From the NCBI GenBank assembly GCA_050084515.1, contig CM114271.1:23932001-23996000 (forward strand): a stretch of DNA of 64,000 nt. The letters run 5' to 3'. Positions 1 to 37,500 of the stretch are shown piece by piece. The stretch comes from Blasia pusilla (taxonomy: Eukaryota). A program made the position numbers and the translations under genes. Each line of letters begins with the position of its first letter. The stretch's first letter is position 1. The notes beneath the pieces are model-generated. The model saw nothing but the letters and a program-made list of their open reading frames with translations, was not told the origin of the DNA and ran no database searches.

Positions 1-469
1 GGGTCCTCATCAAAGTTCCTGGAGAGTTGGTAATGTTGTTGGTGTGAAAGCACGGAGGGCGATGGGAGAAGCGAGTGCGACGACTCCTATTGTTGATGCT
101 CAGGAGGGGCATGTGTCAAGCACGTTCTTGGGGGCGGCCACCGTTGTGTACCGCACTCCTTTATTTTCTGCTTCCGATGTTGTGACGTTGGGAGGTACGC
201 CCGCCGAGGCTTCTCGGCTGGCCGCTTCACTATGTGAGCGCGGAGTTGGAGTTCCTGCATCACGTTCAGAGGTGATTGCAGAGGAGGTGATGGACCTGCC
301 CTTGGAGCGGATGCTAGGGCCGTCCACGTCAAATTCATGGCAGGCTGCAGCTACTAGGATGGCGGAGATGCCCGCTAGACCCGCGATAGAGCGTGCCATG
401 GCTTCTCCTGGTATTGTGTTGCTGGATAACCGAGGAGAGGTCTTCCAGTTGGTGAGTCGTGGAGGTAGA

Positions 470-830
470 GCTTTTAGTCTTGTTGGATTCAGGAGCGCAA
501 CCCTTGATGTTGGGGAAAGCGTCATTCAGAGGATTGGGCTTGACGAGAGCCGATGTGGAGTGTTGTCCATTTCGGATACAGACATCCTTGGGTGGAGCGA
601 GTACCACAAGATATATCACCCGGCTGGAGTCGTGGTGAGGATTCGCGGGACATCCTGCGATGAGTCCGTGGTGTGCGCCAAGGCGATAGTGATCGATCTT
701 TGAGTCCTACGACGTCTTGGTTGGTGGAGCGATGTTATACCCGATGGGGTTTCCTGGATTACTAGGAGGAGTCAACGTCCCCTGAGACCAGGATGGCGTC
801 GGTGATGGGCGCCTTAGCTCATTACCCGTT
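470..830 (+). pseudogene. Retroviral-type aspartic protease domain of copy 1
   Basis: A frame not shown in the ORF track reads LLDSGAQPLMLGK (GAT TCA GGA GCG at 486-497); SYDVLVGGAML follows at about 705-738 after frameshifts. Confidence 0.8.
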
Positions 831-1180
831 TGATTCACAGTGCGATGATCGAGCAGCGGCCAGGAGAGATGGCGACCTTAGCAAAGATTTAGCAAAGTGC
901 CATCACTTGGCCTAGTGATTTGATTGAGGACATGTCCATGCAGAGGATACTCCCTTTCCGACATTTCTGTGGAGAGGAGTGTTATGGTAGTGCATCATTC
1001 CGTGGAGGAGAGGTGCATTGTGGGGCTCGATTGAGGAGCTTCAACGATTGGCGGATCGCAAGACATGCAGCATCGCGTGGAGCGGCGTTTGCACAGAGCG
1101 TGACGGGTCCGAGGAACCCGAGGTAGCGGGAGTGCTACGATGACACCCTTGGATACTACACCCATTGTGTGGTGTACCCG

Positions 1181-2150
1181 GAGGAGGGTATTCGAGTGTT
1201 AGATCTCTTTGGAGGGATTAGCACGGGTTAGTGCTTGTTTTGCAGCGGGAGTGCGAAAGTCTGGAAGATACTTGTATGTGGAGAGTGATGATGTTGCAGG
1301 CGTCTCACTACGACATGTGGCGCAATTACGCCACGTTTTCGACTTATTATGCGTCCAGCGATGGGTACCGAGTTCCCTATCGAGGATATTTAGTTGTTGG
1401 GGCGCAGGACTAGAGCGGGTAGGGACCATTGATTTGGTCATTGCCGGTTGGCCATGTCAGGGCCAATCGAGTGCTGGACGAGGCAGCGGGTTGGCTGACA
1501 CTCGGTCCAGGTTGTTTTGGGAGATGTTGAGGATCTTACTTTACAAAGAGAGAATCTTACGGCGATTGCAGGAGCACCAATCTCGTTCCCAGCCTACATT
1601 CTAGAGAATGTGCCGATCTTAGGAGACTCCAGGTCACGGGTCGTGACGAGTGCTCATCAGGTGCGTGCCTGGATCGGCCCAACAGTGTTCTTGGATGCGG
1701 CGAGTGTAGGTTCTAGAGCCCATCGCCCGCGTCTATGGTGGACCAACTTGGTGCCCCATGCGGTGTTATGGAGGGCGATGCAGAGTGGAGCGCCCCCCCT
1801 TTGTTAGTGGATTCCATTTCGATCCGGTCGCCGATCACGGCAAAGTGAGGCACGATGATCGACCACCGCCGACGTAGGGTCAATAGGTAGGGTAGGCCGC
1901 GGGCGAGCGCCTTGCCCACGTTTGTGAGTTTTCCCGCTTCCTATGCATACAAGCAGGCCGGTCCTGGCTTGATTTGGGATGACCAGGTTCAGCGGTTGGT
2001 GGAGCCCAACGCCGAGTAGAGAGAGAGCGAGCGATGGGATTTCCCACAAGAGTGACGGCAGTACCATCAGTGTCAGAGGCATCACGACGCCATGTCTTGG
2101 GTCAGGCGATGGACCTGAACTGCTTGACATGGATCCTCAGCTTGGGAGTG
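1181..2150 (+). pseudogene. DNMT3-like C5 cytosine DNA methyltransferase domain within pol (frameshifted)
   Basis: Motif I IRVLDLFGGISTG (1190-1228); motif IV DLVIAGWPCQ; motif VI YILENVP; motif VIII AHRPRLWWTNL; motifs IX-X MGFPTRVTAVPSVSEASRRHVLGQAMDL. Confidence 0.9.
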
Positions 2151-2559
2151 GCTGAGAAGCGTCGTATGAGATCGCGACAGATCACAGCGGTTGCGTTGGA
2201 GAGCCCCATGCCTACCGAGAGAGTGGAGGCAGTGGCTGGGGGCGAGACCCAAGGAGATCTACGCACCAGGGTAGATCGGGAGAGACACCCTTGGACTTCT
2301 TGGGATGTTTTGAAGGTACGCAAGGAGATGATAGCCACAAAGATCGAGCGTGGTTTTTGCAATCGCACACGTGGAGGAGATCGAGTTTGCGATTGGTCGC
2401 AGGAGAGCGGCCGAAAGTGTTGTTGTTCGAGACGGGTTGCACCATAGCAACCACCGATACCCGCGCGGAGAGTCCTACCGTAGTCACGATGGAGACTTGG
2501 GAGCCGATATGGGCCCTAAGTTGACACAGGAGGAGAGCGGCGCCGAATACATCGTTCCT

Positions 2560-3910
2560 CGGGAGTTATAGGAGCCGCTGCGTTTAGCATGGAGGATTTG
2601 GGTACGTTGAAGGGACCGGGATCCGCATTGAGTTGTCGAGTGATATGCCGATCTTCCGACGACCCTACAGTGTACTGATGATATGGAGAGGGCTCGATTG
2701 AGTAGGAGCCAAGACTTGGTCGGAGCAGACTAGTGGAGATGTCGCATGGGGAGTATGCATCTGCGCCTTGTCATGCCCGCCAAGAAGGATGTGCATGGCA
2801 ACTGGACGGATAGGCGGATGTGTGGGGATTACCGACCTATCAATCAGCAGACGAAGTCCGATAGGTATGCCATGCCCACCCCTGAGGAGATCTTTGATGC
2901 GATTGGTCACGCAAAGGTCTTGAGTTCATTGGATTTGCGAGCTGGATACCATCAGCTGCCTATAAGATTGGAGGACAGGCAGAAGACGACATTTTGGGGC
3001 ATCGATCCTCACGGGAAGGATTGTTTGTACCAGTGGCGGTTCTTACCATTTGGGTTAAAGAACGCCCCGGCTGAGTTTCAGAGGGTCATGGATAGGATCT
3101 TGGCTGGTCTGGATTTTGCTAGGTGTTATATTGATGACATCGTAGTCTTTAGCACCACGGTTGAGGAGCATGAGCAACATCTAGAGGAGGTGTTTCGACG
3201 ATTGCAATTACATGGGCTGAAGCTACATCCAGGCAAGTGCAAGTTCTTCTACGACCAGATTGAGTACTTGGGTCATACGATATACCCAGGGGGCCTTGGT
3301 GTTCAGCAGACGAAGGTAGAGGCTATCTCACGCATTTTACGCCCTACAGATGTGAGCCGTGTTCGCGCATTCATGGGATTGGCAAACTTCTATCGGCGAT
3401 ACGTCAAGGGATTTAGTTCGATTGCGAAGCCGCTGACCTTGCTCACCAAGTGGATCACGAGTGGCACTCGGGGGGATGAGCGAGCGAGCATTTGATTGCT
3501 CAAGGATAGGTTGACGTCCGCACCCATCTTGAGGAGACCGATCGGCGTCCTTTCCATTGCACCACGATTGGAGCATGTTGGGGCTTGGAGCGGTGCTCAC
3601 CAAAGATGATGATGAGGGTAGAGAGTTTGTGGTGGCTTACGCTAGCCGCTCGAACAACGCCGCAAAGGCTAAATACACTCGTATGAGGGTGAGTGCTTGG
3701 TCGGTGTGGGTCGTCGCGCATTTCAGGTGTTACTTATTCGGCAACCCTTTACCATCATCACTGATCATCAACCACTGAAGTGGTTGATGGAGTCCGACAA
3801 GCTTACAGGGAAGCTTGCGAGATGGGCTCTGTTGTTGCAGGAGTATGATTTTGGTGGTACATAGACTGGAACGCTCAACCAGGATGCAGATGGGTTGAGT
3901 CGTAACCCAT
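2560..3910 (+). pseudogene. Reverse transcriptase and RNase H of copy 1
   Basis: RMCGDYRPIN, LDLRAGYHQ, LPFGLKNAP, YIDD (3127-3138), KCKF, YLGH; RNase H DWSMLGLGAVL, VVAYASR, DADGLSR. Confidence 0.95.
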
Positions 3911-4099
3911 GCCCGTCGGCCGAGATGTGAGTGGAGCTCGATGGCATGGAGAGAGTGATGAGGAGTCGGTGGCGGTGGATGGCACGCGGCGTCGGCCTAT
4001 TCGGGCATGTTGGCTATGGAGAGCCAGAGTGTGGAGACTTCGATGGCGAGGTCTAGTGGAGAGTCTTTGGATCCCGAGGCGAGTGAGGACACGACAAGT

Positions 4100-5540
4100 G
4101 GCCGAGATATTCATGATGATGGAGTAGTCTTAGAGTACCTTCGTAGTGGCAGCCTTGTGAGCACCATGGATGCTAGAGAGCGGGATCGGATCCTACAGCG
4201 GGCCAGACGGTTCCGTTGGGAGGGGACATTTGTTTTGAGGGTTTGGGAGGATGGCAGAGTACGCGTAGTGCCGCATCCTTTGCAGAGAGCACAACTAGTG
4301 CAGCATGCCCACGAGGAGTTGGGTCACTTTGGGGTGAAGCGGACGTATAGCTTGCTCCAGATTCAGTATTGGTGGCGAGGCATGCAGACTGACGTTCAGC
4401 AGTTTGTTGCCAGGTGCATGGTGTGTGATCGGGTCCGAGCATCGTTCAATGCTCCGACTCCACAGTTGCATCCATTACCAATCATGGGCTTAGGGTATAG
4501 ATGGAGTTTGGATTTTGCAGGACCTTTGCCCTTGACGGAGCGTCACAGTCGTTATGTGTTGGTGATGGTCGAGCACTTCTCGAAGTGGATCGAGTTGGTT
4601 GCATTGCCTGACAAAGCGAGTGAGGGAGTAGCTTATGCCTTCCTTGACAGAGTTCTGAGTCATTATGGCATACCAACTTAGGTGTTGACAGATCAGGGTA
4701 CCGAGTTTCGTGGTGAGTTCCAGGCCTTGTGTGATCAGGCGCTGATCGGCCACCACACGACTTCGCGAGATCATCTCGAGGCGGATGGATTAGCGGAGAG
4801 AGTTGTCCAGACGGTGAAGAGGGTTTACGCAAGTATGGCTTGCAGAGAGGTCACCTAGGAGATTGGGACCTCCAGTTGCCATGGTTGGCGATGGGATACA
4901 GATTCAATAGGCAGGCATCCTTAGCGTCTTTTTCACCGTATTTGCTACTTTATGGCCGAGAGCCAGATTTACTTGCGGCCATTCGTCGAGATCTTTGGTG
5001 AGGTCTGAACCTTGATGACCCTGATGTATGGGTGCGAGCATGTTCTCAGAGGGCTGAGTTATTTCGGAGAGTGATGCCCATGGCGTTCGAGAACTTAGCG
5101 ATTGCACAACATCGGGATACGTTGAGGTATGCGACTATTCGAGGTGGTGGTTATCGACCAACTATCCGGAGGTTTCATCATGGAGATTATGTCTATTTGC
5201 AGCAGACGGCAAGCGGCGTTGGATGTGATGCAGGCGCACTATCCTGAGAGTGCGTGACATTTTGCCATCGGGTGTTCTCTTGCTGGAGGGACGCGATGGT
5301 ATGGTATGGAAGGACCATGTGCGTAATTGTGCGCCATGTCACCTTCCTATCATTGATGGTAAAGTAGATCCGAGCTTAGTAGTAGTTCCTGCAGGCTTGC
5401 GTTGTATGTTTGTGGTTACGCCGTAGTGCGCCACGATGCTAGTCTGTGATGGGTGTTCGAGAGGATGGCATATGGCATGTTTGACGCCACCTCTCACTAG
5501 GGTTCCTAAGGGACGATGGATGTGTCCCAGATGTACATAG
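4100..5540 (+). pseudogene. DDE integrase with C-terminal PHD finger, copy 1
   Basis: HHCC motif HEELGHFG...CMVC; core SLDFAGP / VLTDQG / GLAERVVQ; PHD ...[33 protein letters not shown] with stop at 5538-5540. Confidence 0.92.
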
Positions 5541-5711
5541 AGAAGGTAGTTCTACATTCCGACTTGTGTCTATGACATGGATGACAAGGAGGCGACTAAC
5601 GATGGGGCCACATGAGCACCCGACCTTCTTGCTCTTAGCGTCCGAGAGATGTATGTCATGATAGGTAGGGATAGATGGCTATCTGGAGTTAGAGGGACCT
5701 AACCACCAGCT

Positions 5712-5720
5712 AGGGGGGCG
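5712..5720 (+). promoter_or_regulatory. Polypurine tract of copy 1
   Basis: AGGGGGGCG lies immediately before ATTGGAGATA, the start of repeat B; the same arrangement is at 25321-25329 (-) in copy 2. Confidence 0.75.
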
Positions 5721-6490
5721 ATTGGAGATATTTTGGTTCTTCTTGTCTCGTTGTTTGGATGCCATGAGTTAGCATGGGATCATGCGTGTTTGTGTGTGTG
5801 TTCGGTGATAGCGATGTATGTTGTGTAGCGATGTGTATGCGCACGACAGCTATCACGTCTTTTAGGATAGATCGGTGGGATCTAATAGAGCTCCTTCATG
5901 AGTAGTGGAGGACACGCCCAGTAGTCGAGGGTGACCTGCTGAGGCCCTTGGAAACCTGAGATAGCAGGTTTCCCCTTCGTTTCGGCTCATTTGGAGCCAT
6001 ATTGAGGAACTTACTATTTTAGGTAAGTACCATTTTGAGTATATGATCGACTTTCTAGTTTTGGTAAGTGGCCCTTGACCTCCTACATCAAGTCAAGAGC
6101 CAAGTAAGTGACTTGGGAGAATAGGTTACCATGGAGAGAGCTTGGGAGAGGAGAGGGGTATACCTCAAGGAAAGAGAGCTTGAGAGCTCATTCTCTCTTT
6201 GTTGAACCTCTTGGCATGAGGCGGCGGAGCTATGGTACCTTGTCTTGTGAGTGTAACCCAAGCCTCTCATTAGGAGAGTGGGTTTGGTTTGACATGAGAG
6301 AGAGTGCACACCTTTGAGAGCTATGGTGTGAGATGGTGGAGAGAGAGATTGGATCTTACTTTATTGGAGATATTTTGGTTCTTCTTGTCTCGTTGTTTGG
6401 ATGCCATGAGTTAGCATGGGATCATGCGTGTTTGTGTGTGTGTTCGGTGACAACGATGTATGTTGTGTAGCGATGTGTATGCGCACGACA
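5721..6490 (+). repeat. Split terminal repeat B1 (5721-5848) - GC - A2 (5851-6362) - B2 (6363-6490)
   Basis: The 128-bp B unit is present twice and nearly identical, flanking a ~510-bp A unit homologous to 33757-34273 and 24692-25190. Confidence 0.92.
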
Positions 6491-6499
6491 GCACACATG

Positions 6500-22400: not shown

Positions 22401-24564
22401 CGAATTCCGATGCGTGGACCCGATTCTCGAAGGACGGGCGGAAGGAAGAAGGTAAGATATCTTGCTATCGTTCTTGGCGTTTAGCTCCGCTTGGCGCGTA
22501 CTTAATTCTTCCCGAATCCTGATCATCGACTTTCGATGGGGCCTCTCTCGCTCCCTTGTCACCACTATGTCTTTTCCGGAGCGCATCGCTCACGGGGGAA
22601 AGAGCCAGCATTGATGATAATCCTCGATCACGTCCTCCGGTCATTTTTCTTTCTTTCTCTCTACGACCCCTCCCCTGACCGCTGGGGCCTCGACGACACC
22701 GGACGGGACTCGCGATAGTCGTAGGACCTCAAGGATGGGACAAGGGGCTACGATCCGATCCGGATGACTACGGAAGTCCCAATTTATCACGTGCATGATC
22801 GAGCCAGGGCACGGGACCGGGCGCATCCCGTGCTCTCGGGCGAGCTACCGGACTGCCATGTTCATGCGGATTCGAGGAGGGACAGGACTCGGTAGCGAAA
22901 AGAGGCATCTTGGGATTGTGCGCGTGGTATGTGGGCGCTTGTCATACGACGTCGCATGCACTATTCCAGTCCTCCCAAAGCGGGACCTTTGGGCGGCCTT
23001 ACAGCGAAGTAGTAAGTACTTAAGTACTGCATCGATTTCGGTCGGCGCACTTGCACTTTCCCGTCCCCGTTCCCTCTCTCGGACGCAATCGACGCGCTCC
23101 CTGTCGTCGTCGGCGGAACTGCACAGTCGGACGTCGTCCGGTGCATGATGAGGATCCGGATGTAATATGCTTAGCATTAGGAGAGCATCGCTTAACGTGT
23201 GTAATTCACGATAGTTTCAAGGAATCGAGGACTAGGAAAGAAAAGACGAAAGTACTAATCACTACGTCGTCCTTTGCGCGTGATGGGACCACACATGTCA
23301 TGGACATGGATTTCATTCTTGTTCCGGAAATTTTAAACGTCCGGAACAAGAATTATTAACACTGGCTGGCCAGCTAGTGTTAAGAAAGAATTAGAGTCAA
23401 GAATTAGATAAAATGGTGAAAATTTTTGGTTTTTTTTAAGTTAATGATTAAATCTTTTTTAATCAATTTAAATCAATCCTACTCATCGAAAGAACTAGTG
23501 ATCCAATTAAATGAAATGGCGAACAATCTTGTTGGTTGAAGGGAGCATACGTGAAGAGAAGAGTTGTTTAAAAATCAAGAAGGGATTTTGCAATAGTACC
23601 TTAAAGTACTTGATAATCCTTCCACGTGAATATAAAAACTTCTCCTATGAATGGAGCTTTGACTCATCATTCCAGTCGGCATTTAGTGCCGACTAAGGTA
23701 ATAGCTTTTGGTTTTGCTTTCAGGCTTCGGAGCTAGGGTTTGTACCTTGAAATAAAGGTGGGGTAACATTCCACTTATGTTTGGTGCCCACATAAAATTT
23801 TAACTAGCGTGGCCCCTTGCCTTGTAAGATAATCATGGGGGAGTGGAGTAGCACTTACAGAAGATTTAATATGGCACTATTTTAATTTTTGTAATACATA
23901 GAGAACCCAAATCCATTTGGGGTTCATGTTGGGGATAAAGATACCATTAGTAAATGAAAAAAAAATAGAAGAAATTTGGTTCAACCAAATTAATTCAAAA
24001 TTGGATCTAAAATCATAAGAGAAAAGAATAGAAATTTCACTTTTATGAACTAAACTGATAATAGTATAAACTATGTCAAGAGAGTAGGGGGAGGGGGATT
24101 ACTAAAAAGATAACTTCTTGCAATTATATATCTTTTATCCCATGCACTTTGTGAAAACCCGATGTGAATGGCTCAAAGGAGTTACAAGGCCCATTGCTAA
24201 ATATTTTCATGGGGACAGTCATACACCTTAATGATTTAAATCATGTAATAAGTAGTTACGAGAAAATCAAGTTTTGGGTGTGTGTTGGTTTCGAGTTTGA
24301 TTCAGTTCTTTGAGTTGACTCAAAGAAAGGATTTTCATGGCTTTTTTTACTAAAAAAATTCAATATTTTCTCCCAATTTTTATTATTTTATTATTTTTGT
24401 TCCAAAATAATGTGACAAAGATCATAACCATGTACAAGGTACCATAATTTCACTCTATTAAGAAAAATCTTCATCAAGAAAGAATTTCAAGAAGATCATA
24501 TTTCCCAAGAAGATTTTCTTTTAACGTAAGTACTATCAAGGTAGCATATGGATAAAGTCGTTGT

Positions 24565-25320
24565 TGTCGTGCGCATACACATCGCTACACAACACACATT
24601 GTTGTCACCGAACACACACACAAACTCGCACAATCCCATGCTAACTCATGACATCCAACAACGAGACAAGAAGTACCAAAATATCTTCAATCTCTCTCTA
24701 CACAATCTCACACCATAGCTCTCAAAGGTGTGCACTCTCTCTCATGTCAAACCAAACCCACTCTCCTAATGAGAGGGTGGGGTTACACTCACAAGGCAAG
24801 GGACCATAGCTCCGCCGCCTCATGCCAAGAGGTTCAACAAAGAAAGAATGAGCTCTTAAGCTCTCTCTCCTTGGGATATATACCCCTCCCCTCTCCCAAG
24901 CTCTCTCCATGGTAACCTATTCTCCCAAGTCATCTCCTTGGCTCTTGATCTGATGTAGGAGGTCAAGGGCCACTAACCAAAAATACAAAGTCGATCATAG
25001 ACTCAAAATGGTACTTACCTAAAATAGTAAGTTCCTCAATATGGTTCCAAATAAGCCAAAACGAAGGGAAATCTGCTCTCTCATGTTTCTCAGGGCCTCA
25101 ACAGGTCATCCTCGACCTCCTAGGCATGTCCTCCACTACTCTTGAAGACGCTCTACTAGATCTCACCGATCTATCCTAAAGGACGTGGCAATTGTCGTGC
25201 GCATATACATTGCTACACAACATACATCACTGTCACCGAACACACACACAAACACGCACGATCCCATGATAACTCATGGCATCCAAACAACGAGACAAGA
25301 AGTACCAAAATATCTCCAAT
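24565..25320 (-). repeat. 3' split repeat of copy 2: B1 (25193-25320) - AT - A2 (24692-25190) - B2 (24565-24691)
   Basis: Same B-A-B layout as 5721-6490; PPT at 25321-25329. Confidence 0.92.
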
Positions 25321-25506
25321 CGCCCCCCTAGTTGGTGGTTAGGTCCCTCTAACTCCAGATAGCCATCTATCCCTACCTACCATGAGATACATCTCTCGGA
25401 CGCTAAGAGCAAGAAGGTCGGGTGCTCATGTGGCCCCATCGTTAGTCGCCTTCCTGTCATCCATGTCAGAGAAAAAGTCGGGATCGAAACCTACCTAGTA
25501 TCTCCT

Positions 25507-27000
25507 CTATGTACATCTGGGACACATCCATCGTCCCCGAGGAACCCTAGTGAGAGATGGCGTCAAACATGCCATATGCCAACCTCTCGAACAACCATCA
25601 CAGACTAGCATCATGGCCGCACCACGAGCAGAACCACACAACATACAACACAAGCCTGTAGGAACTACTGCTAAGCTCGTATCCACTGTACCATCAATGT
25701 TAGGAAGGTGACATGGTGCACAATTATGCACATGGTCCTTCCATACCATACCATCACGTCCCTCTAGCAAGAGAACACCGGATGGCAAAACGTCACGCAC
25801 TCTCAAGATAGTGCGCCCTGCAGTCACATCCAACGTTGTCGGTGCCGTCTGCTGCAAGTAGACATAATCTCTCTGATGAAACCTCCGGATAGTTGGTCAA
25901 TAACCACCACCCCGAATAGTCGCATACCTCAACGTATCCCAATGCTGCACAATCGCCAAGTTCTCGAATGCCATGGGCATCACTCTCCGGAATAACTCAG
26001 CCCTCTGAGAACATGCTCGCATCCATACATCTGGGTCATCAAGGTCCAGCACCTCACTAGCATCTCAACGAATGGCCGTAGGTAAATCTGGCTCTCGGCC
26101 ATAAAGTAGCAAGTACGGTGAAAAAGACGATAAGGATGCCTGCCTGCTAAATCTGTATCCCATCGCCAACCATGGCAACTGGAGGTCCCAATCTCCTAGG
26201 TGACCTATCTTCAATCCATACTTGCGTAAATCCCTCTTCACCGTCTGCACAACTCTCTCCGCTAATCCATCCGCCTCGGGATGATCTCGCGAAGTCGTGC
26301 GGTGGTCGATCAGCGCCTGATCACACAAGGCTTGAAACTCACCGCGAAACTCGGTACCCTGGTCTGTCAACACCTTAGCCGGTGCGCCATAATGACTCAG
26401 CACTTTGTCAAGGAAGGCATAAGCTACTCCCTCACTCGCTTTGTCAAGAAATGCAACCAACTCGATCCACTTCGAGAAGTGTTCGATCATCACCAACACA
26501 TAACGATTGTAACGCTCCGTCAAAGGCAAAGGTCCTGCAAAATCCAAACTCCATCTATACCCTAAGCCTATGATCGGTAATGGATGCAACTGTGGAGTCG
26601 GAGCATTGAACGATGCTCGGACCCGATCACACACCATGCGCCTGGCAACAAACTGTTGAACGTCAGTTTGCATGCCTCGCCAACAATACTGAATCTGGAG
26701 CAAGTTGTACGTCCGCTTCACCCCAAAGTGACCCAACTCCTCATGGGCATGCTGCACTAGTCATGCTCTCTGCAAAGGATGCGGCACTACGCATACTTTG
26801 CCATCCTCCCAAACCCTCAAAACATGTGTCCCCTCCCAACGTAACCGTCTGGCCCGCTGTAGGATCTGATCCCGCTCTCTAGCATCCACGATGCTCGCAA
26901 CGCTGCCAGTAGGAAGGTACTCCAAGACTACTCCATCATCATGAATATCTCCGCCACTTGTCATATCCTCACTAGCCTCGGGATCCAAGGACTCTCCATT
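25507..27000 (-). pseudogene. Integrase plus PHD finger, copy 2
   Basis: ORFs 26065-26757 (HEELGHFG, SLDFAGP, VLTDQG, GLAERVVQ) and 25507-25857 (CMLC...CDGC...HMAC...CPRC, C4HC3). Confidence 0.92.
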
Positions 27001-27129
27001 AGACCTCGCCATCGAAGTCTCCATAGTCTAGCTCTCCATAGCCAACATGCCTAAATAGGCTGACGCGTGCCATCTTGGCACTGACTCCTCATCACTCTCT
27101 CCATGCCATCGAGCTCCAATCGCATCTCG

Positions 27130-28555
27130 CTAACTCGGGCCTGGGTTACGACTCAACCCATCTGCATCTTGGTTGAGCGTCCGGGGTCTATGTACCACCT
27201 GAAAATCATATTCCTGCAACAACATAGCCCATCTCGCAAGCTTCCCTATAAGCTTGTCGGACTCCATCAACCACTTCAGTTGTTGATGATCAATGATGAT
27301 GGTAAAGGGGTTGCCGAATAAGTAACACCTGAAATGGGCGACAACCCACACCGCAACCAAGCACTCACCCTCATACGAGCTGTACTTTGCCTCTGCAGCT
27401 TTGTTCGAGCGGCTACCATAAGCCACCACGAACTCTCTACCCTCATCATCATGTTGGGTGAGCACCGCTCCAAGCCCCAACATGCTCCAATCTGTGTGCA
27501 ACTGGAAAGGACGCCCCCGGATCGGTCTCCTCAAGATGGGCGCAGATGTCAACCTATCCTTGAGCAACTGAAATGCTCGCTCTTGCTCACCCCCAGTGCC
27601 ACTCATGATCCACCTTTGTCAGCAAGGTCAAGAGCTTCGCAATCGAACTGAATCCCTTGACGTACAGCCGATAGAAGTTCACCAATCCCGTGAATGCGCG
27701 AACACGGCTCACATCTGTAGGACATGGAATGCGTGAGATAGCCTCTACCTTTGTATGCTGAACACCAAGGCCCCCTGGGTATATTGTATGACCCAAGTAC
27801 TCAATCTGGTCGTAGAAGAACTTGCACTTGCCTGGATGTAGCTTCAGCCCATGTAATTTCAATCGTCAAAACACCTCCTCTAGATGTCGCTCATGCTCCT
27901 CAACCGTGGCTCTAAAAACTATGATGTCATCAATATAACACCCACAAAAATCCAGACCAGCCAAGATCCTATCCATGACCCTTTGAAACTCAGTCGGGGC
28001 ATTCTTTAACCCAAATGGTAAGAACCACTGGTACAAATAATCCTTCCCGTGAGGATCGATGCCCCAAAATGCCGTCTTCTACCTGTCCTCCAATCTAATA
28101 GGCAGTTGATGGTATCCAGCTCGCAAATCCAATGAACTGAAGAGCTTTGCGTGAACGAACGCATCAAAGATCTCCTCAGGGGTGGGCATGGCATACCTAT
28201 CGGACTTCGTCTGTCGATTGATAGGTCGGTAATCCCCACACATCCGCCTATCCGTCCAGTTGCCATGCACATCCTTCTTGGCGGGCATGACAGTGGCAGA
28301 TGCATACTCCCCATGGGACATCTCTACTAGTCGTGCTCTAACCAAGTCATGGCTCCTACTGTGAATCAGAGCCCTCTCAATATCACAGTACCTGTAGGGT
28401 TGTCGGAAGATCGGCGTATCACTCGACAACTCAATGCAGATCCTCGGTCCCTTCAGCGTACCCAAATCTTCCATGCTAAATGCAAAGTAGCTCCTATAAC
28501 TTGTGAGGAACTGATGTATCCGGCGCCGCTCTCCTCCTGTCAACTTAGGGCCCAT
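27130..28555 (-). pseudogene. RT and RNase H, copy 2
   Basis: RRMCGDYRPIN, LDLRAGYHQ, KCKFF, LHTDWSMLGLGAVL, YEGECL, DADGLSR. Confidence 0.95.
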
Positions 28556-28914
28556 ATTTGGCTCTCAAGTCTCCATCGTGACTACGGTAGGACTCTCTAG
28601 CGCGAGTATCGGTGGTTGCTATGGTGTAACCGCGTCTCGAACAGCAACGCTCGGTTGCTCTTCTGCAGCCAACTACAAACTCTGATCTCCACATGCAGTG
28701 TTCGGAACCACGCTCGATGTTGTGGCTATCATCTCCTGGCGTACCTGCAAAATATCCCAAGAAGTCCAAGGGTGTCTCTCCCGATCTCCCCTGGTGTGTT
28801 GATCTCCTCGGGTCTCGCCCCCAGCCACTGCCTCCACCGTCTCGGTAGGCATGGGGCTCACCAACGCAACCGCTGTGATGTGTCGCGATCTCATCCGACG
28901 CTGCTCAGCCACCC

Positions 28915-29835
28915 CCAAGCTGAAGATCCATGTCAAGCAGTTCATGTCCATCGCCTGACCCAAGACATGGCGTCGTGATGCCTCTGATACTGATGGGACT
29001 GCCGTCACTCCTGTGGGAAATCCCATCGCCCGCTCTCTCTTGTTGGCGTTGGGCTTCACCATCCTTTGAACCTGGTCATCCCAAACCAAGCCAAGACCGA
29101 CCTCCTTGTATGCATAGGAAGCGGGAAAACTCACAAGCGTGGGAAAGACTGTCCGCGGCCTGCCTACCCTGTTGACCACAGTTAGCAGTGGTCGATCATC
29201 GTGCCTCACTACTTGTGATCAACGACCTAGATCTAGAATGGAATCCACTAACAAATGGGAGGGGCGCTCCACTCTCGCATACGCCCTCCGTAACACCGCA
29301 TGGGGCAACAAGTTGGTCCACCATAGATGTGGGCGATGGGCTCTAGAACCTACACTCGCTGCATCCAAGAACACTACTGGGCCAATTCATCCACGCACTT
29401 GATGAGCACTCGTCACCACCCGTGACCTAGAGTCTCCTAAGATCGGAATATTTTCCAGAATGTAGCCTGGAGAATGAGACTGGTGCTCTTGCAACTGCCG
29501 TAAGACCCTCAACATCTCCCAAAAAAATCTGGACGGAGTGTCAACCAACCCACTACCTCGTCCAGCACTCGATTGGCCCTGACATGGCCAACCGACAATG
29601 ACCAAATCAATGGTCCCTACCCGCTCTAAGTCCTGCGCCCCCAACAAGGAAATATCCCTTGGTAGGGAACTTTGGTACCCCTATACCGCGGACGCAGACA
29701 ATAAGTCGGGAAAACGGAGGCGTAACTGCGCCACATGTCCTAGTGAGACACACCTCGCAACATCATCACTCTCCACATACAGGTACTGTTGTACTCGCAC
29801 TCCTGCCTGCAAAACAGCAGCTAACCTTGTGCTGA
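28915..29835 (-). pseudogene. DNMT3-like C5 methyltransferase domain, copy 2 (motif I deleted)
   Basis: DLVIVGWPCQGQS, YILENIP, ERAMGFPTGVTAVPSVSEASRRHVLGQAMD. About 340 bp corresponding to roughly 880-1217 of copy 1 is missing at about 29837. Confidence 0.88.
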
Positions 29836-30649
29836 TACTGAGGTCGCCATCTCTCCTGGCCGTCGCTCGATCACTGCACTTGTGAATCGAACGGGTAATG
29901 AACTAAGGCGCCCATCACCTGACTGCCATCCTGGTCTATAGGATCGACTCCTCCCAATAATCAGGTCGGTATAACATCGCTCCACCATCCAAGACGTCGT
30001 AGGACTGCATGAGTCACTATCGCCTTGGCTCGCACTTCCTGACTCATATGTAGGATGTCCGGGAGAATTCTCACCACGACCTCTGTTGGGTGATATACTA
30101 TGTGGTACTCGCTCCATCCAAGGATAATGAATGGACAACGCCACATCAGCCCAATCCTGAATGACGCCATCATCGGGGTTGGTCTAAATCAACAAGACGC
30201 TGCCGCGACTAAAAGCTCTCCCAATAATCCAGCAACACAACACCAGGAGAAGGGCATGGATCTAGCGGGCATCTCCGCCATCCTAGGGCGTGGGCGGTCC
30301 GAGCATCCGCTCCAAGGGCAGGTCCATCACCTCCTCTGCAATTACCTCTAAACGTGATGCAAGAACTCCAACTCCGCGCTCACATAGCGAAGCGGCCAGC
30401 CGAAAAGCCTCGGCGGGCGTACCCCCCAATGTCATAACATCGGAAGCAGAAAATAAAGGAGTGCGGTACACAACGGTGGCCGCCCCCAACAACGTGATCG
30501 ACACATGCCCCTCCTGAGCATCAACAATAGGAGTCGTCGCACTCGTTTCTCCCATCGCCCTCCGTGCCTGCACACCAACAACATCACCAACTCTCAAGGA
30601 ACTTTGATGAGGACCCATCGATGGGATCCTCATCGCTTCGGACAATGTG

Positions 30650-32900
30650 AAAGACTGAGGAAGCCTAGTCTATTTTCTGGCTTCCCCTCGTTGTGGATCC
30701 AACTTTGCGGCTGCTCCACGCGTCACAACTGCGGCGGCCTCCATCTGGGCAACCCCGCACATCCAACCAGGATCCTCCAGATCTCTGGCTGCTCCATATG
30801 ATGTCGATGCCACGGATCCGGCATCGGGTAACCTCAATGCCATAATGGCAATCTGCTCCTGTAGATGTTGTATCTGAGCAGCCATCCCAGCCTCACGTCC
30901 GGCGTCTCCCTCGGCGCATCTAGGTGGTGGTACTCTACCTCCTCCACGGGCAGCTCCACCACCTTGTCGGGAAACTCCAGCTCCTCGTCCCCCAAGGGGA
31001 CCTTCTGGTGCAGCACCATCTCCTCCTCCATGCTGAGGCAACGTCCATGACCCTGATGAGTGCAATCGCGATGATGATGGGCTCCACCACATGACCAACA
31101 AGTAATAGTGGGCGGCTGCTGCTGAGCCGCATATGAAGGCACAGGTCTCTGTGGCACGGCCTCCTGGTATCCTCCCTGAGCTCGTGGTGCCACAGTCGAC
31201 CTATCCCGGAGTCCACGTTGCTGCACAGGTGGTGCAGACAATTGTGACTGCTCTTGCCCAGAACCCATGGTGGCTACGCTCTCCTCCGCCATGTTGCGCT
31301 CAATGTTCTCGGCGGTCCTAAAAACATCTCTCAACGTAGGGGAGTGTTCATAAGAAGCATCCCCTCCCGCACCCATGTCCGCAGGGTCCGGTCCAGCATC
31401 GCGTAATATGACTGGATAGCCTGAGCCTCTGTCACCCCCTGAGTGATGTTGATCAACCGGCGCAAGCGAGTGTAAGCCTCACGCAAACTCTCACCCGGGC
31501 GCCTCTGGAAGTCATGGATGCTCTGCAACTTCTCCGTCCGTAACCCCCTGGTAGCTCGCCCTCAACTCAGTAAAGAACTCAACCATGGGGTTGAACCTGG
31601 GACGAACCCGACTAGACGGTGCAACTGCTCCAATGCGAGTGACCCCTCCTAAAACATCACTAGTGGAAGAGGAAGTAGCCTCTCATGACTCCTCCTCCTC
31701 ATCTGAGAACGGCTCCGTCCATGACACATAGTGTGGGTCGTAATAGAGTCGCCATGCCTCAATCTCTTGGGCATATCTGTGGGAAAAGTCATGGTAATCG
31801 TCCATGGGTGCCCCCTCCTAATGCTGGAACATACCATTCCATGCTATAAACGGGTTAAACTCTCTAGAGTTCCTGGCCCGCTAGGAGTCGTACCAACTCC
31901 TAAACTCTGCTATGAACTCGTGCAACTCAATCGTACCTACTGCACTTGAAAACCTACGCGGTCCTCTACGTCCTTCTCGTACGCCCAACTGGTAGGACCA
32001 CTTACAATGTGTGGCGATGTGCTCACAAACTCCTATACACCCTCCCCCTCGTCTGACGATGACACAGAAGGAGGTCGAGGTGATCCCTGAAGTGAAGACC
32101 CTCGGAACCTCACGCCACTCCGCGTAAAACCTCTAGAGCTACTCTCGGGTTCACCACCTTGTCTCTCAAAGTCCCGAACAGACGCCTTGATGACCCTGGT
32201 GCCCTCCTCACCCGATCACTCTTGCCTTGAGAGTAATCCCTCAATCATTCATCCCAAACATGCAACACTTGATCTACACTCTCCCTCCCCGAGACATGTA
32301 ACGTGCGGAAATAAGCGGCGTGGTGGGGCAAATCGACCAGGCTATCATTTCATCGATAACCTACCCTCAACTCCAAACATCCCACATAGGTCTATGTCCC
32401 CTAAACCACATACATAAATGATGCTCTCAGGATCCACACATCCAGTATCCCCAAATAAACTACCCAAATTCCAAAATCCCTCACACGTGCAGGGTAAATG
32501 ACCAGAATGGGTAACCTGAACACATCTCAATGTCGCTCCTCAGCAACTGCAAATCTCGACCCAAACTCAATCATGGAGACAACTCCTCCAATCAGCAAGT
32601 CATACTCCTCCCGTACTAACGTTGCTCAAAACTCCTTGATAGACGGTGCGGTTCTAGCGGAACGGTGCAGCGTTGCAGGTGGCACGGAACGGCTACGAAT
32701 GACACGGCCCTCGATGATGGGATGCGGCACTCGCGGCATACCCTCCTCAATCAACAATAAACCCACACTCTGCTCCACAATGTCGGAGCGGCTCCGCGAT
32801 CGAGACGCTGCGGTGCGGCCACGAGCGGCACGGCGCGGCAATCAACGGCGCGTTGCGGCTACGGGCGTTACGGCACAGTACTCGATCGTCGTCGAGCGGC
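30650..32900 (-). pseudogene. Gag of copy 2
   Basis: FQRRPGESLREAYTRLRRL (retrotransposon gag motif, 31331-31528), CWSCGGAHHHRDC zinc knuckle and AVVTRG motif. The N-terminal limit is uncertain. Confidence 0.75.
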
Positions 32901-33744
32901 TACCAATCACAACATAGCAGCATGAAATCAAAACTCAAACACTAGAACATGAGGTCATATGCCATCACAGGTTGATGACGGTGGCGGCCAAAACAAAGTA
33001 CGTGATGGCGACGCAAGTCCGAGAATCAACGAACGTTGTGGAAGACCCTCCACTCCGTAACGGCGGCAATGGCAACCAAGGGTGGATAACGGACGGTGGA
33101 CCATTGACTGTGATGGTGACGGCCAAACGGTGACGATGACGGTTGACCATCGACGGTGATGGTTGATGGAGACTATAACGGAGACGGCCGCCGCCGGTGT
33201 GGCGTTTGGTTTAGGGTTTGCACAATTTAACCCTAAAAATCGCCTAGCAATGGCAGTTTTTCAAGATTGATCATAACTTTTTGCTCGCAACTCCAAATTG
33301 CGCATTGTTTGTTGCACAGCGTGCACAGCTTCACGATCTACACGAGAATCAAAAAATATTTAGAATCTAGCATTCCAGTAAAAATTTACAGGGACTGTCG
33401 TAAAGCCCAATGTCTCTTTCTCCTACACAAAATTCGGCAACGCTTCCGCGCTGATTCCTCCCAACAAAAACGTAAAACCTGTAAAAATGAAAATCAGAAA
33501 GTGACATGGTGCTCCCAAAAGCACCGGCATGGGGCAACCCGCCCCCATACTCAATCCCTATCAGAAATTGGGCAGCGCTTCCGCGCGCCACTCTTCCACA
33601 CGAAAAATCAGAAAATGCAAAGAACAATCCAAGCAACCCTTGCTCCGATGAGCACTCCCATGACCGTTGAACGGGGAACACGGTCCCCAACCTGCAAAAA
33701 TAGCGAGTGACCAATGAGCTCCCCCATGAAGCTCTCTCATTCTT

Positions 33745-33759
33745 TCATTCTCTCATTGT
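33745..33759 (-). promoter_or_regulatory. Putative self-priming primer-binding site at the U5 end
   Basis: Minus-strand ACAATGAGAGAATGA is complementary at 14/15 positions to TCATTCTCTCTTTGT at the predicted TSS; no TGG-type tRNA PBS is adjacent. Confidence 0.65.
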
Positions 33760-34273
33760 AAAGTAAGATCCAATCTCTCTCTACACAATCTCACACCATA
33801 GCTCTCAAAGGTATGCACTCTCTCTCATGTCAAACCAAACCCAATCTCCTAATGAGAGGCTTGGGTTACACTCACAAGGCAAGGGACCATAGCTCCGCCG
33901 CCTCATGCGAAGAGGTTCAACAAAGAGAGAATGAGCTCTCAAGCTCTCTCTCCTTGGGATATATACCCCTCTCCTCACCCAAGCTCTCTCCATGGTAACC
34001 TATTCTCCCAAGTCACCTCCTTGGCTCTTGACCTGATGTAGGAGGTCAAGGGCCACTAACCAAAAATAGAAAGTCGATCATATACTCAAAATGGTACTTA
34101 CCTAAAATAGTAAGTTCCTCAATATGGTTCCAAATAAGCCAAAACGAAGGGAAATCTGCTCTCTCAGGTTTCCCGGGGCCTCAGCAGGTCATCCTTGACC
34201 TCCTGGGCCTATCCTCCACTACTCTTGAAGACGTTCTACTAGATCTCACGGATCTATCCTAAAGGACGTGACA
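33757..34273 (-). repeat. 5' terminal repeat A1 of copy 2 (no B unit)
   Basis: Matches A2 (24692-25190) with roughly 20-25 substitutions in ~500 bp by eye; unique flank begins at 34274. Confidence 0.92.
33928..33965 (-). promoter_or_regulatory. LTR core promoter: TATA box and initiator
   Basis: TATATAT at 33965-33959; TCATTCT (YYANWYY) at 33934-33928, with the +1 A (33932) 33 nt after the first T of the TATA box. Confidence 0.6.
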
Positions 34274-34501
34274 TTGTCCGCGGACAATGCCAGATATGTC
34301 CATGTATGTGAACTTACGTCCGTCCGATGGAAGGACTTATCCATGTGGGCCTCAACTTTCTCTTCTTTCTTATTCTCTCCACTTGCCTATGTGTTCCATA
34401 CTTTCCTCTTGAAGCCCATAGATTGCCTCGGTATCGCACTTAATGCGAGATCGGGCAGCTTGGACGCGGGCAGGCAAGTGAGGGGGAATGCCAAAACAAT
34501 A

Positions 34502-34573
34502 AATGCAGCCGGATTCGAACCCGGGTCTTTGCACCGGCACTCCGCGACCCTATCCACTATCCTACCAGCATTC
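34502..34573 (-). pseudogene. tRNA-Gly-like pseudogene or tRNA-derived SINE head
   Basis: Minus strand has TAGTGGATAGG (A-box-like), TGCC and AGACCCGGGTTCGAATCCGGCTG (B-box/T-arm as in tRNA-Gly), with AATGC/GCATT ends. The anticodon stem is broken. Confidence 0.55.
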
Positions 34574-37500
34574 CATGGTGTTAGGTAGGGGGCTTTGTTA
34601 TTTACTTGCAAAATTCTCTTTTAACTACTTGCCCGAGCCCCCTACCCGCTGAAAGTACCAGGTCTTGCAATCAATGCAAGACCGCGGCAGTTTAGGGCCT
34701 TCGCTGTCCCGTTTCTTCCTCCCCCCTTTTTTCCCACTCGGCCTTTTCCTACTTTCCATCATGAACTACAAGTGTGGGTCCCATCTTTTGCTATCATGAT
34801 CCGTCTCCGGACCAGACTTGTCCATTTTTGTACAGTCGTGAGTACTCTGTGTTAAGGAATGGAATTGTAGATAAATGAAGTTGCCTTCAATTTAGAGTTG
34901 CACAAGTGCAACTCTAAATTGAGGCTGAAAATAAATATGTTCATTACGTTATGCCCATCACGTTGAATGATAATTTCATCGAAGTTTGGAATGCTTCTCT
35001 TGTTGCTAATTTTTGTTTGCTAATAATATGCCTATGCTTCTCTTCTAGCAGTTTGTTAAGGTCATTCAAAGCGAGCCTCGTAGGCTAGAGTCATGAGATT
35101 TCAGTTAGGACTCCCAATAAATTTTCACGAAAATAGGTAAAACAATATTACTTTGTAGTAAGAGATAAGAGACTGTACGGTTAAATGGAATGACAGAATA
35201 CATGGAAAGGGAGAGAAGCCGTCCACAATATCAACCAACTCCTTGACATTAGAGGTGGAAGAACCCCACTACAAGTAACTTCACCACAACACAATATTAG
35301 CAAAGAAACAATGCAAAAAATGCAATGAAACCCAAACTACGTGACAATGAATAAAATGTTAGAGGGAAGCAATGTCAACAAATGCAACCAAAGCAACACA
35401 ACATGACAAAATAAACAATGATAAAACAAATCAACGAATGCAAAGAAAAACACGCCACGTTGGAAGATTTTACAGATAGTAGCTTACGGGATCACAACAA
35501 GAATTCACACATAGTAGAAAACAAAGCGAATTTTTTGGATGTTTTGGGGGGAACAAACTGACGCCCGTAAAAATCAAGTCTAGGGTATATGGATTTACGT
35601 AGGAAAAGAATGGGGTTTTTTAATTTCGAATAATCTAAATAAAACATCTTTTCAGCGAAGACTATTTCATTTTTTTAAGAGGGAAAAGAATGATTGCTAC
35701 AGTGACCAGAAAGGCCCATGAACTTCCACGACACGTCGCCATGGCCGGGAAGTTCCTTGGAAGGAAAGCAGGAACGGTAATTCGATAACAATGCGGCGCC
35801 CTGAGGTCGCGTCTGAAGTCCGTCCTTCCGAACAACATCGAAGTTTGTCTTGAAAACTGGCGTCTTCGCTTCGCGATAAAGGTTTGGATGTTTCTAGACA
35901 CCACGAAAATCGTTTCTTTGGACTGAAGTCGTGAGATCCCTGTCGCCTACGAGAAGAATGTCTTGGAGATAATCGCTCTTTCCTCCAGTTTCAAACCCCA
36001 CCGTCCCAAGAGAAGATATTGTTAACCAGGGGTACATACGTACTTCTTTCCAACTGTGACGGCGTTAATATAACGGTGACCCTATATACAGAAGACAGAG
36101 AGACACATTCCTGCGAGGCCCCCCACGTACTTCTTCCGTAACGTACGCCATGGTACAGGAAAAAGCGATCGACGGTAAGAAAGGGTCCCATTACCCAACA
36201 ACATGTCGCTATCTTTGGGGAGGCATCAAGGGAAGACAGTCGTAGCTAAAATAAAGAGGATGGAGCATGATGGCAGTGGTGGCATTGTGGTCATAACTAG
36301 GAACGACTAGCGAGGAGTTGGACCGAGAGTTTGGCGGCAGAATTATAGGAGACGGTTGTGCTCGCCCACAATGGCGACGCATGCAAATCAGATGTTCACG
36401 TTCCACCGACAAACTTAGCTCTCGTCCCATCCTCGGACGTTCTGCGTGGCGCGCCAGCATTGGACATGAGAGTGCTCACATCGGTGGCACATGGGAAAGG
36501 GAAGGTTCTTCCCTCACATCTTGGCCTCCGACGACTCCGAATTAAGGTGCCGTTTACATCGTCTTCGGGCACCGAGCGAGCCGGTCAGACAAACAAAGAC
36601 AGTCACCGGCTCGCCGTTTCACCCACTGGACCCTGCCAGCAAGCTGGATATCCCGTCACTTTCACCTCGTCTCCACTTCACGTACACGGCGGCCACCGCG
36701 TGGGGGGGCTCCTTCGAATTATGGAACTCGCCCGCCATGAACCGAGCGTTTTTTGGACGGACGGACGGACAGCGCTCCGCCTACAATGCGAACGAAAGTA
36801 TGGTAGTAGCGCGGTCGCGACTTGTGGGACTTACGGGCGGACGTACTGGCTCAGACACTATAGCATGTTCTTTCTTTCGTATGGGTGCCCCTCCCATGGG
36901 CACCGTATATCGCGAGAGCTTTCGTGCCGCTAAACGGAAAGTGGTTTCGCGACACGGAGCCGAACAGAGATTTCGTATAGTTCCCGCGGAAAGACGGCCG
37001 GTATAAATTAACGAGCGGTACGGACAAATGAAAGCCGTCACGGAGCCACGGCGCTCCATTGGATGAGAGACATCACGGACGGACGGCAATGAGAGCAGAG
37101 GTGACAGGCGGGCGAGGGAGAGAGAGAGAGATCAGAAGCGCAGAAGGTCTGCGCTTGTGAATCAGAAAAAATCGATCAGAACTGCAAGCAATCAGAGAGG
37201 CACGTGCCGTCGGAGGGCTAACGCCACCCCGAGCATATGCCGTGCGCTGTTGTTGCGAACTTGTGGTACGGAGCGGTGCTTTAGGCCGAGCGGGAAGACC
37301 GTGGTGAGTCCGGTGAGCTGTGGTTGGGATAGGCCAGGGAAATGGTTTTCAAACTTTCTTCAGTCGATTCGAAAGATTCGCTTTCCCTCAAAAATGGAGG
37401 TTCGTCCAACTTTCGGAAAAAGCTCGCGTTTCTTTTGAAAAGTTTTGACTTTAATTCGCTGGTTTCTCTGGTATAAGGAGAAAATGGGCACTACAACAGC

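Follow-up and report, generated by a model that had tools for sequence, protein, structure and literature searches.

A 64,000-nt stretch of the Blasia pusilla genome (contig CM114271.1, positions 23,932,001 to 23,996,000; the whole stretch is referred to below as the window) carries on its minus strand, at 24565–34273, a retrotransposon of Ty3/Gypsy type whose repeats are permuted. Where two complete and identical long terminal repeats (LTRs), one per end, are the rule for Ty3/Gypsy elements, this element, copy 2, has a lone repeat A at its 5′ end and the series B-A-B at its 3′ end. A second member of the same family, copy 1, lies at the start of the window. The signals for reverse transcription place the polypurine tract (PPT) at B and the primer-binding site (PBS) at the end of A; the repeat of the complementary DNA (cDNA) should therefore be B+A, and the chromosomal ends fall at the boundary between B and A, inside that repeat. 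We consider it fairly probable that the cDNA ends become joined and that the element's integrase opens the resulting molecule at a palindromic B/A site, which would make the chromosomal form a circular permutation of the reverse-transcription product.

The layout was obtained by comparing positions 23000–36000 with the whole window and then reading the boundaries base by base, with the strand taken from GC skew and Pfam matches. In the sense direction, copy 2 consists of A1, the PBS, the internal region, the PPT, B1, A2 and B2. The self-comparison returned two repeat pairs, A at 24688–25196 and 33771–34278 (95% identity over 509 nt) and B at 24564–24692 and 25192–25321 (91% identity over 130 nt). 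The outer ends read TGTCACG at 34273 and GCACGACA at 24565, and are flanked by ACAA (TTGT on the plus strand) at 34277–34274 and 24564–24561; the internal boundary between B1 and A2 reads ...GCACGACA-AT-TGCCACG.... Copy 1 matches copy 2 in inverse orientation over 1–6493 at 89% identity and finishes with the same B-A-B series (5722–6490). All of this agrees with the initial annotation of the region, which had described A-internal-B-A-B, a copy 1 ending likewise, and TGTC...GACA ends with a 4-bp target-site duplication (TSD), TTGT, for an interval (24561–34277) that includes both duplications.

In both window copies, and in all 17 of the 3′ ends of B-A-B type recovered from metagenome contigs (see below), a run of six to nine G residues abuts B1, as had been proposed for the PPT. 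The sequence immediately past A1 contains no TGG-type transfer RNA (tRNA) site; its complement lies within A, in a segment starting 31–34 nt past a TATA box. We compared the length of this complement with that in 1000 control windows for the 12 elements in which a TATA pattern could be applied (L042, where the pattern gave no box, lies outside the count). Six of them have a complement that no control window equalled (0/1000 in each case): L054, L063 and L080 with 15 nt, L028 with 12 nt, L041 with 11 nt and copy 2 with 10 nt exact, or 13 of 14 by eye. A 17-nt complement was read separately in L021, and L048 has one of 8 nt (6/1000 controls). L048 apart, the self-primer complements measured 10–17 nt, with the PBS no more than 4 nt from the end of A, and an arrangement of the Tf1/Sushi kind was present in eight of 14 elements, with the RNA start predicted from the TATA box. 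The three families use different primer sequences and retain the pairing, and L080 differs from L054 by a compensated G-to-A change; when the L054 RNA was folded from its predicted start to the PBS, nucleotides 1–15 paired with the PBS (z −3.8). Twelve nucleotides separate the PBS of copy 2 from the end of the homology between A1 and A2, an apparent displacement that arises because the A2/B2 joint has a 15-nt deletion relative to copy 1.

The PBS is therefore predicted to be self-priming in the manner of Tf1, pairing with the putative 5′ end of the RNA from which it is copied, and not a site of tRNA type. The expectation that the PBS adjoins A held with this correction to its nature and, for copy 2, to its position; together with the G-run PPT at B, it bears out the earlier proposal that reverse transcription would yield a B+A LTR. 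At L054:5850–5880 (A consensus columns ~525–555), within the U5 part of A, downstream of the predicted RNA start and ahead of the PBS, we also observed a perfect 9-bp stem, ACGGTGGCC...GGCCACCGT, which recalls the U5 stem-loop required for self-priming of Tf1.

The recurrence of the layout was assessed in 80 related metagenome loci, retrieved with an alignment of 12 related polyproteins; the sample was thus made up of metagenome contigs, with further copies from the host genome outside it. Near-identical duplicates made up 14 pairs, 13 loci were dropped as redundant, and the loci were typed by self-comparison and by probing with known A and B segments. Eight complete metagenome elements are of the form A-internal-B-A-B (L003, L021, L041, L048, L054, L063, L073 and L080), and B-A-B 3′ ends were found at 17 non-redundant metagenome loci as well as in both window copies, the last B of L047 being cut by the contig end. 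The layout spans three sequence families. Every one of the 14 visible 5′ ends (13 loci and copy 2) is a lone A following unrelated sequence: none carries B, and neither B-A...B-A nor A-B-A...B occurs among them. A distant Gypsy element in the same locus set, L078, has ordinary 892-bp LTRs with a tRNA-type PBS beside the 5′ LTR, so the method detects ordinary LTRs where they are present. The scarcity of BA...BA forms predicted by the initial annotation was accordingly observed. Its further prediction of uniform A...BAB (or ABA...B) forms was correct for the 17 B-A-B ends; the alternative ABA...B was seen at none of the 14 5′ ends, and about 22 A-internal-B ends had not been foreseen. The concern that a lone copy or a misassembly might lie behind the structure is countered by its recurrence in independent contigs and by the exact A/B joint in independent DNA contigs.

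The ends of these elements have the marks of integrase. Family members start T[G/A]TCATG (TGTCACG in copy 2) and end CA[C/T][G/A]ACA, and among the 12 complete elements compared, eight are flanked by perfect 4-bp TSDs and four by TSDs that match at three of four positions. Perfect duplications flank copy 2 (ACAA), L003 (TCTC), L021 (AAGG), L054 (GGTC) and L080 (TTTA), as well as the short forms L010 (TACA), L028 (TGTT) and L005/L006 (AACG); L041, L048, L063 and L073 match at three positions. For L010 the end was set by homology (TACA/TACA), an automatic anchor on a second motif 8 nt further on having scored 0/4. Of 396 comparisons made with control 4-mers at offset positions, 3 matched perfectly and 22 at three of four positions; the 4-bp duplication at the element ends is not due to chance. 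The combination is that of Ty3/Gypsy elements (TG...CA termini and a TSD of 4–5 bp), as had been anticipated across copies, and differs from the integration without TSD that characterises DIRS, PAT and Ngaro elements.

The joint between A and B within the 3′ series is where cDNA termini would be expected to meet. In copy 1 it reads ...GATTGGATCTTACTTTA / TTGGAGATATT..., so that the base preceding the PBS stands next to the one that follows the PPT, an exact abutment of the U5 end and the U3 start. The A2/B2 joint of copy 2 lacks 15 nt between two ATTG repeats; 13 DNA contigs from this organism contain the exact joint (25319→33759). Among the 15 copies of the largest metagenome family, the joint is blunt in seven, shortened by 2 nt at an AT microhomology in four, and altered by +1, −1, −1 and −8 nt in the other four. 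The two smaller families are represented by four copies, of which copy 1 has an exact joint and copy 2, L003 and L021 have inexact ones: L003 contains a 17-nt filler copied from a nearby piece of A, and L021 shows −4/+1, with the 4 nt missing from B. Across an alignment of 14 B-A-B sequences, the joint is the 12-column window most variable in indels (eight sequences deviate, against at most five elsewhere), while the PPT/B1 boundary and the B1/A2 site are constant in length. Mapping the joint classes on a tree lent weak support to a repeated origin. Taken together, the variation fits cDNA termini that may be joined anew at each insertion, and is suggestive rather than conclusive. RNA reads also cross the A/B joint (11 and 9 in two stranded runs); these may stem from a promoter in A2 or from read-through.

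The B/A site, in turn, forms a near-palindrome, ...CACGACA-NN-TGTCATG.... Its spacer is GC, AC, AT or GT in 17 of 18 sites from the metagenome and the window (L073 is unclear), always a purine followed by a pyrimidine. The simplest account would be an ancestral GC within CAGCTG that decayed by C-to-T change at its two CHG sites. We also considered that the spacer might be made anew in each cycle from untemplated purines added by reverse transcriptase, sister copies having different spacers; this was set aside, as CHG decay gives exactly the four states seen.

From these elements a replication route can be proposed. Transcription would start inside A and the 5′ end of the RNA would itself prime the minus strand, as in Tf1, with plus-strand synthesis beginning at B, a combination from which linear cDNA would emerge as B-A-internal-B-A. 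The termini of this molecule, the U5 end of A and the U3 start of B, would be joined through a 2-LTR circle, by host end-joining or by a jump of reverse transcriptase. Integrase would then take the B/A palindrome of the upstream repeat (...CACGACA-RY-TGTCATG...) as its pair of ends, and the product would be A-internal-B-A-B flanked by a 4-bp duplication. On such a route the A2/B2 joint would be a fossil of the joined cDNA ends, and the B1/A2 site an uncut second copy of the attachment site, required in the next RNA.

The same insertion could be reached without a free circle, if integrase were to cut the upstream B/A palindrome on linear cDNA and insert both new ends while host end-joining sealed the original termini. 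The product would be identical, with the same end-joining-like spectrum at A2/B2, and the route permits an asymmetry: standard reverse transcription completes the upstream repeat first, which would fit the absence of A-B-A from all 14 5′ ends. It would, however, leave a broken chromosome until repair, and it is inseparable from the circle route by sequence alone; we regard it as unlikely, if far from negligible. When reverse transcriptase switches templates end to end, it too typically leaves joins that are blunt, carry one extra nucleotide, use microhomology or contain templated filler, and the observed joints, including the 17-nt filler of L003, could have arisen in that way. A jump from the U5 end to the U3 start would then produce an over-length linear molecule, B-A-internal-B-A-B..., of which integrase would use the first and third B/A sites. 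A mirror jump at the other end would yield A-B-A, which none of the 14 5′ ends shows, and no longer concatemers were seen, L013/L014 aside, so that we think this version improbable.

Two further explanations would remove the integrase or the permutation from consideration. In a cycle like that of DIRS, PAT and Ngaro elements, a tyrosine recombinase supplied in trans would integrate circular cDNA, and the Gypsy integrase would be irrelevant; the Fig. 1e legend of PMC5890265 indeed presents A...BAB as the characteristic DIRS layout. The Phage_integrase profile (PF00589), however, had no match at E ≤ 0.01 in the six frames of copy 2 or the three sense frames of L054 and is absent from the Pfam lists of related full-length proteins, in keeping with the initial annotation, which had seen no tyrosine recombinase. 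Site-specific recombination is, moreover, not expected to yield 4-bp duplications and TG...CA inverted ends, both of which are integrase signatures, and we hold such a cycle to be very improbable. Finally, copy 2 could be an ordinary element, with A+B as its LTR, whose 5′ LTR has been damaged, or whose structure results from local rearrangement or misassembly: A+B does have proper TG...CA ends, and the window offers a single 5′ end. Against this, the layout recurs in eight other complete elements and 17 3′ ends, in independent contigs and three families, the PPT and PBS lie at B and at A rather than outside A+B, and the exact A/B joint is found in independent DNA contigs. The recurrence refutes this explanation, to which we attach next to no credence.

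Several points nonetheless weigh against the reading we prefer, the opening of joined cDNA ends at the B/A palindrome. No circular or linear cDNA molecule has been observed, and joining after integration, or an end-to-end template switch by reverse transcriptase, yields the same product as a circle. Were a 2-LTR circle cut symmetrically, A-B-A-internal-B and A-internal-B-A-B should be equally frequent, and the absence of the former from the 14 visible 5′ ends calls for an extra assumption: one might speculate that the upstream repeat becomes double-stranded first, or that A-B-A collapses to the short form by recombination. Indels at the joint lie in an AT-rich context, in which some may be later slippage, and two of the four −2 joints belong to sister copies. 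The self-primer complement went undetected in five of 14 elements (L003, L006, L010, L034 and L073), and in the fold of the copy 2 RNA the 5′ end pairs elsewhere than with the PBS. The RNA reads that cross the joint make any placement of the polyadenylation site, and hence of R, provisional. All copies are degenerate, so the structure of the active master copy can only be inferred. The roughly 22 3′ ends that stop at B, in a form the initial annotation did not foresee, are explicable by recombination without any circle. The layout has, in addition, already been printed for a Gypsy element, and is therefore not undescribed. The topology of the initial proposal, a 2-LTR circle opened by integrase, is strengthened by the reverse-transcription signals, by the U5/U3 joints and by the lack of B at all 14 5′ ends; the circle itself and the A-B-A form have not been seen.

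The short form merits description in its own right. Twenty-two metagenome 3′ ends, about half of the total, stop after the first B and continue into unrelated DNA; two of these, L016 and L036, share a flank and may be one insertion. Four elements are complete in the A-internal-B form (L005/L006, L010, L028 and L034), three with perfect TSDs and one, L034, with a truncated B. As the short form lacks terminal redundancy, it should not be able to replicate. Such copies could be products of a one-repeat circle cut at its single B/A site, of cuts at both B/A sites of a linear cDNA, or of later recombination between B1 and B2. The intactness of open reading frames (ORFs) does not separate long from short forms by age, all being degenerate.

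A few loci depart from both forms. L025 has B-A followed by unrelated sequence, and L023 a partial A and B immediately after pol. At L049:1628–1929 an inverted segment from the U5 part of A comes directly after a B end (…CACGACA), and the contig stops after 124 nt; nested insertion or an event resembling autointegration could account for the arrangement. L013 and L014 are overlapping metagenome contigs from a more distant lineage, in which the match covers only query residues 468–1513 and leaves the DNMT part outside. L013 has the same TGTCATG start and a junction-like site, GACA-GC-TGTCATG, at L013:8888; past its second A comes sequence resembling the 5′ region and then a 3.5-kb segment that matches the interior of the contig at 99.9% identity. 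The pair could stem from copies in head-to-tail tandem, from a circle or from a chimeric assembly.

For protein content, broken frames were translated through, with X at stops, before the Pfam scan. The sense strand of copy 2 encodes, in order, a remnant of a DNA methyltransferase (DNMT), RVT_1, RNase H, an integrase with H2C2 and rve domains, and a PHD finger. The same order, DNMT and PHD included, was found in L054, and in copy 1 the scan, which excluded the PHD region, matched the DNMT (PF00145, E 4e-9), reverse transcriptase, RNase H and integrase. The succession reverse transcriptase, RNase H, integrase (H2C2 and DDE) is the pol order of Ty3/Gypsy elements; PF00145 upstream of the reverse transcriptase within pol, present in copy 1, copy 2 and L054, marks the Gypsy-DNMT3 group, and A-coding-B-A-B repeats with Gypsy domains are those of its KnitGypsy-Dnmt3 kind. 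The reading of copy 2 meets 144 stops in a single frame; with frames so full of stops, both copy 1 and copy 2 are dead. Every family copy examined is degenerate, with longest ORFs of 180–847 aa. Closest to the copy 1 reverse transcriptase come unnamed proteins from the liverwort Calypogeia fissa (78–81% identity), followed by a Marchantia protein that also bears PF00145 (74%). More distant relatives occur in Klebsormidium nitens (protein P0056, 51% identity, E 9e-66) and Closterium and among many metagenome proteins with the order reverse transcriptase, RNase H, integrase and PHD, the DNMT being present or absent. From its sequence, copy 2 can be identified as an old, inactive Ty3/Gypsy retrotransposon of the streptophyte Gypsy-DNMT3 group, of the KnitGypsy-Dnmt3 kind, with a DNMT3 and a PHD finger.

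The layout as such has a precedent. De Mendoza et al. (2018; PMC5890265, Fig. 4c legend) describe KnitGypsy-Dnmt3 of Klebsormidium nitens as having DIRS-like repeats with Gypsy domains, the DIRS arrangement being defined there as A-coding region-B-A-B (Fig. 1e legend); the main-text passages of that paper on KnitGypsy-Dnmt3 give no termini, duplications, primer sites or mechanism, and its supplements may hold more. A 2026 preprint (10.64898/2026.05.21.726589) merely mentions 'streptophytes (Gypsy-DNMT3)' in the part available to us. We found no published mechanism for permuted Gypsy repeats in the searchable literature, a scope from which subscription journals and supplements are excluded. The initial annotation had not recognised this route as described for Gypsy; that stands for the mechanism, whereas the layout had already appeared in one legend line. 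The layout is thus not new, and the integration route it points to, which we did not find described, is now supported across three families.

Comparison with known systems helps to place the element. It shares with KnitGypsy-Dnmt3, as described in that legend, a Gypsy pol with a Dnmt3-type methyltransferase and DIRS-type repeats, and differs in that its nearest named relatives are liverwort proteins at 74–81% identity. With elements of DIRS order (PAT and Ngaro; SymbioDIRS-Dnmt3 in PMC5890265) it has in common A-coding-B-A-B and an internal B/A copy of the joined ends; unlike them, it has a DDE integrase, 4-bp duplications and TG...CA ends, and no tyrosine recombinase was found in it. Tf1/Sushi elements and plant Tcn1 chromoviruses, for the latter of which self-priming has been predicted (Neumann et al. 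2019, PMC6317226), likewise lack a tRNA-type PBS and have a PBS by U5 that is complementary to the transcript start; theirs, however, are ordinary LTRs and a chromodomain, in contrast to the permuted repeats and integrase C-terminal PHD finger found here, with no chromodomain match. Foamy-virus and HIV-1 integrases cleave the palindromic LTR-LTR junction (PMC1180852, PMC1905944), so that a retroviral-type integrase cutting an internal palindrome of abutted ends into integration-competent ends is known; there the site is the U5/U3 circle joint, whereas here the palindrome lies in mid-repeat and the U5/U3 joint stays uncut in the integrated copy. The features of copy 2 and the extent of copy 1 are collected in Table 1. 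The circle junctions of IS3- and IS30-type insertion sequences, in which inverted ends abut a few bp apart, are an active donor for a DDE enzyme, in bacterial DNA transposons that, unlike the present element, involve no reverse transcription. Joined-LTR circles are generally treated as dead ends of replication.

Table 1 Features of copy 2, listed in sense order, and of copy 1, in window coordinates.
Feature	Coordinates	Strand	Basis and remarks
TSD, 5′ side of copy 2 (ACAA in sense, TTGT on plus strand)	34274..34277	.	Direct reading; 4/4 match to 3′ side
A1, starting TGTCACG at 34273; homology with A2 stops at 33771	33759..34273	-	True U5 end at 33759, from the copy 1 joint and joint reads
TATA-like box within A1 (A position 314)	33960..33965	-	
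Predicted RNA 5′ end TCATTCTCTCTTTG, 31 nt past TATA start, complementary to PBS	33921..33934	-	10-nt exact complement, 0/1000 controls; 13/14 by eye
Putative self-primer binding site CAATGAGAGAATGA, immediately past U5 end	33745..33758	-	Like arrangement in relatives
C-5 cytosine DNA methyltransferase remnant	29423..29656	-	Pfam PF00145, E 5e-6
Reverse transcriptase (RVT_1)	27782..28252	-	Pfam, E 3e-27
RNase H (RT_RNaseH / RT_RNaseH_2)	27208..27588	-	Pfam
Integrase, H2C2 zinc domain and DDE core (rve)	26278..26772	-	Pfam
PHD finger at integrase C-terminus	25513..25647	-	Pfam
PPT AGGGGGGCGA, abutting B1	25320..25329	-	Direct reading
B1, U3 start TTGGAGAT..., end ...GCACGACA	25193..25319	-	Self-comparison and direct reading
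2-nt spacer AT in palindromic B/A site ...GACA-AT-TGCC...	25191..25192	-	Direct reading
A2, starting TGCCACG; last 12 nt of U5 absent	24688..25190	-	Self-comparison and direct reading
B2, ending ...GCACGACA at 24565; joint with A2 at ~24688-24692	24565..24690	-	15-nt deletion between ATTG repeats at joint
TSD, 3′ side of copy 2	24561..24564	.	Direct reading
Copy 1, same family, 5′ part beyond window start	1..6490	+	PPT 5712-5721, B 5722-5848, spacer GC 5849-5850, A 5851-6363, B 6364-6490

Stranded RNA sequencing under the same species label covered the whole element (24300–34500) almost only in the sense direction, at a depth of ~100–190 over the 3′ half against ~15–35 over the 5′ half. Most reads are 90–95% alike to copy 2, so it is related copies, and not copy 2, that are transcribed. 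RNA reads that match the PPT region (25320–25356) run into a different B, starting GTTGTGGTACAC and resembling the B of the L003/L021 family; sharing the PPT region and differing in B, they point to an expressed subfamily with a shared internal part and a diverged repeat. Elsewhere in the window, on the minus strand, an ORF at 17594–18400 with a weak RVT_1 match (E 3e-7), unrelated to both Gypsy copies, is probably a remnant of another retroelement, and an ORF at 39970–41055 with a GATA zinc finger (E 2e-14) probably represents an exon of a host gene for a transcription factor.

At least three sequence families are represented among these chromosomal copies, which hold joined U5/U3 ends internally and have integrase-type ends elsewhere. 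One practical consequence is that LTR-based annotation tools will mis-delimit B-A-B elements; the A-internal-B form, being without terminal repeats, will escape them altogether. More broadly, and only tentatively, we suggest that a streptophyte-wide clade of LTR elements with a DDE integrase may obligately replicate through joined cDNA ends, its integrase ignoring the linear termini and opening a built-in palindrome; a molecule of the 2-LTR-circle type would then be productive, the A-internal-B copies would be products of one-repeat circles, and the logic would be convergent with that of the split repeats of tyrosine-recombinase elements. Sense-strand expression of the family in the same organism offers a natural system in which the route is directly testable. 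If the route we favour is correct, the joining of cDNA ends would lie on the replication pathway of this clade, and the split-repeat architecture would not be tied to tyrosine recombinases.

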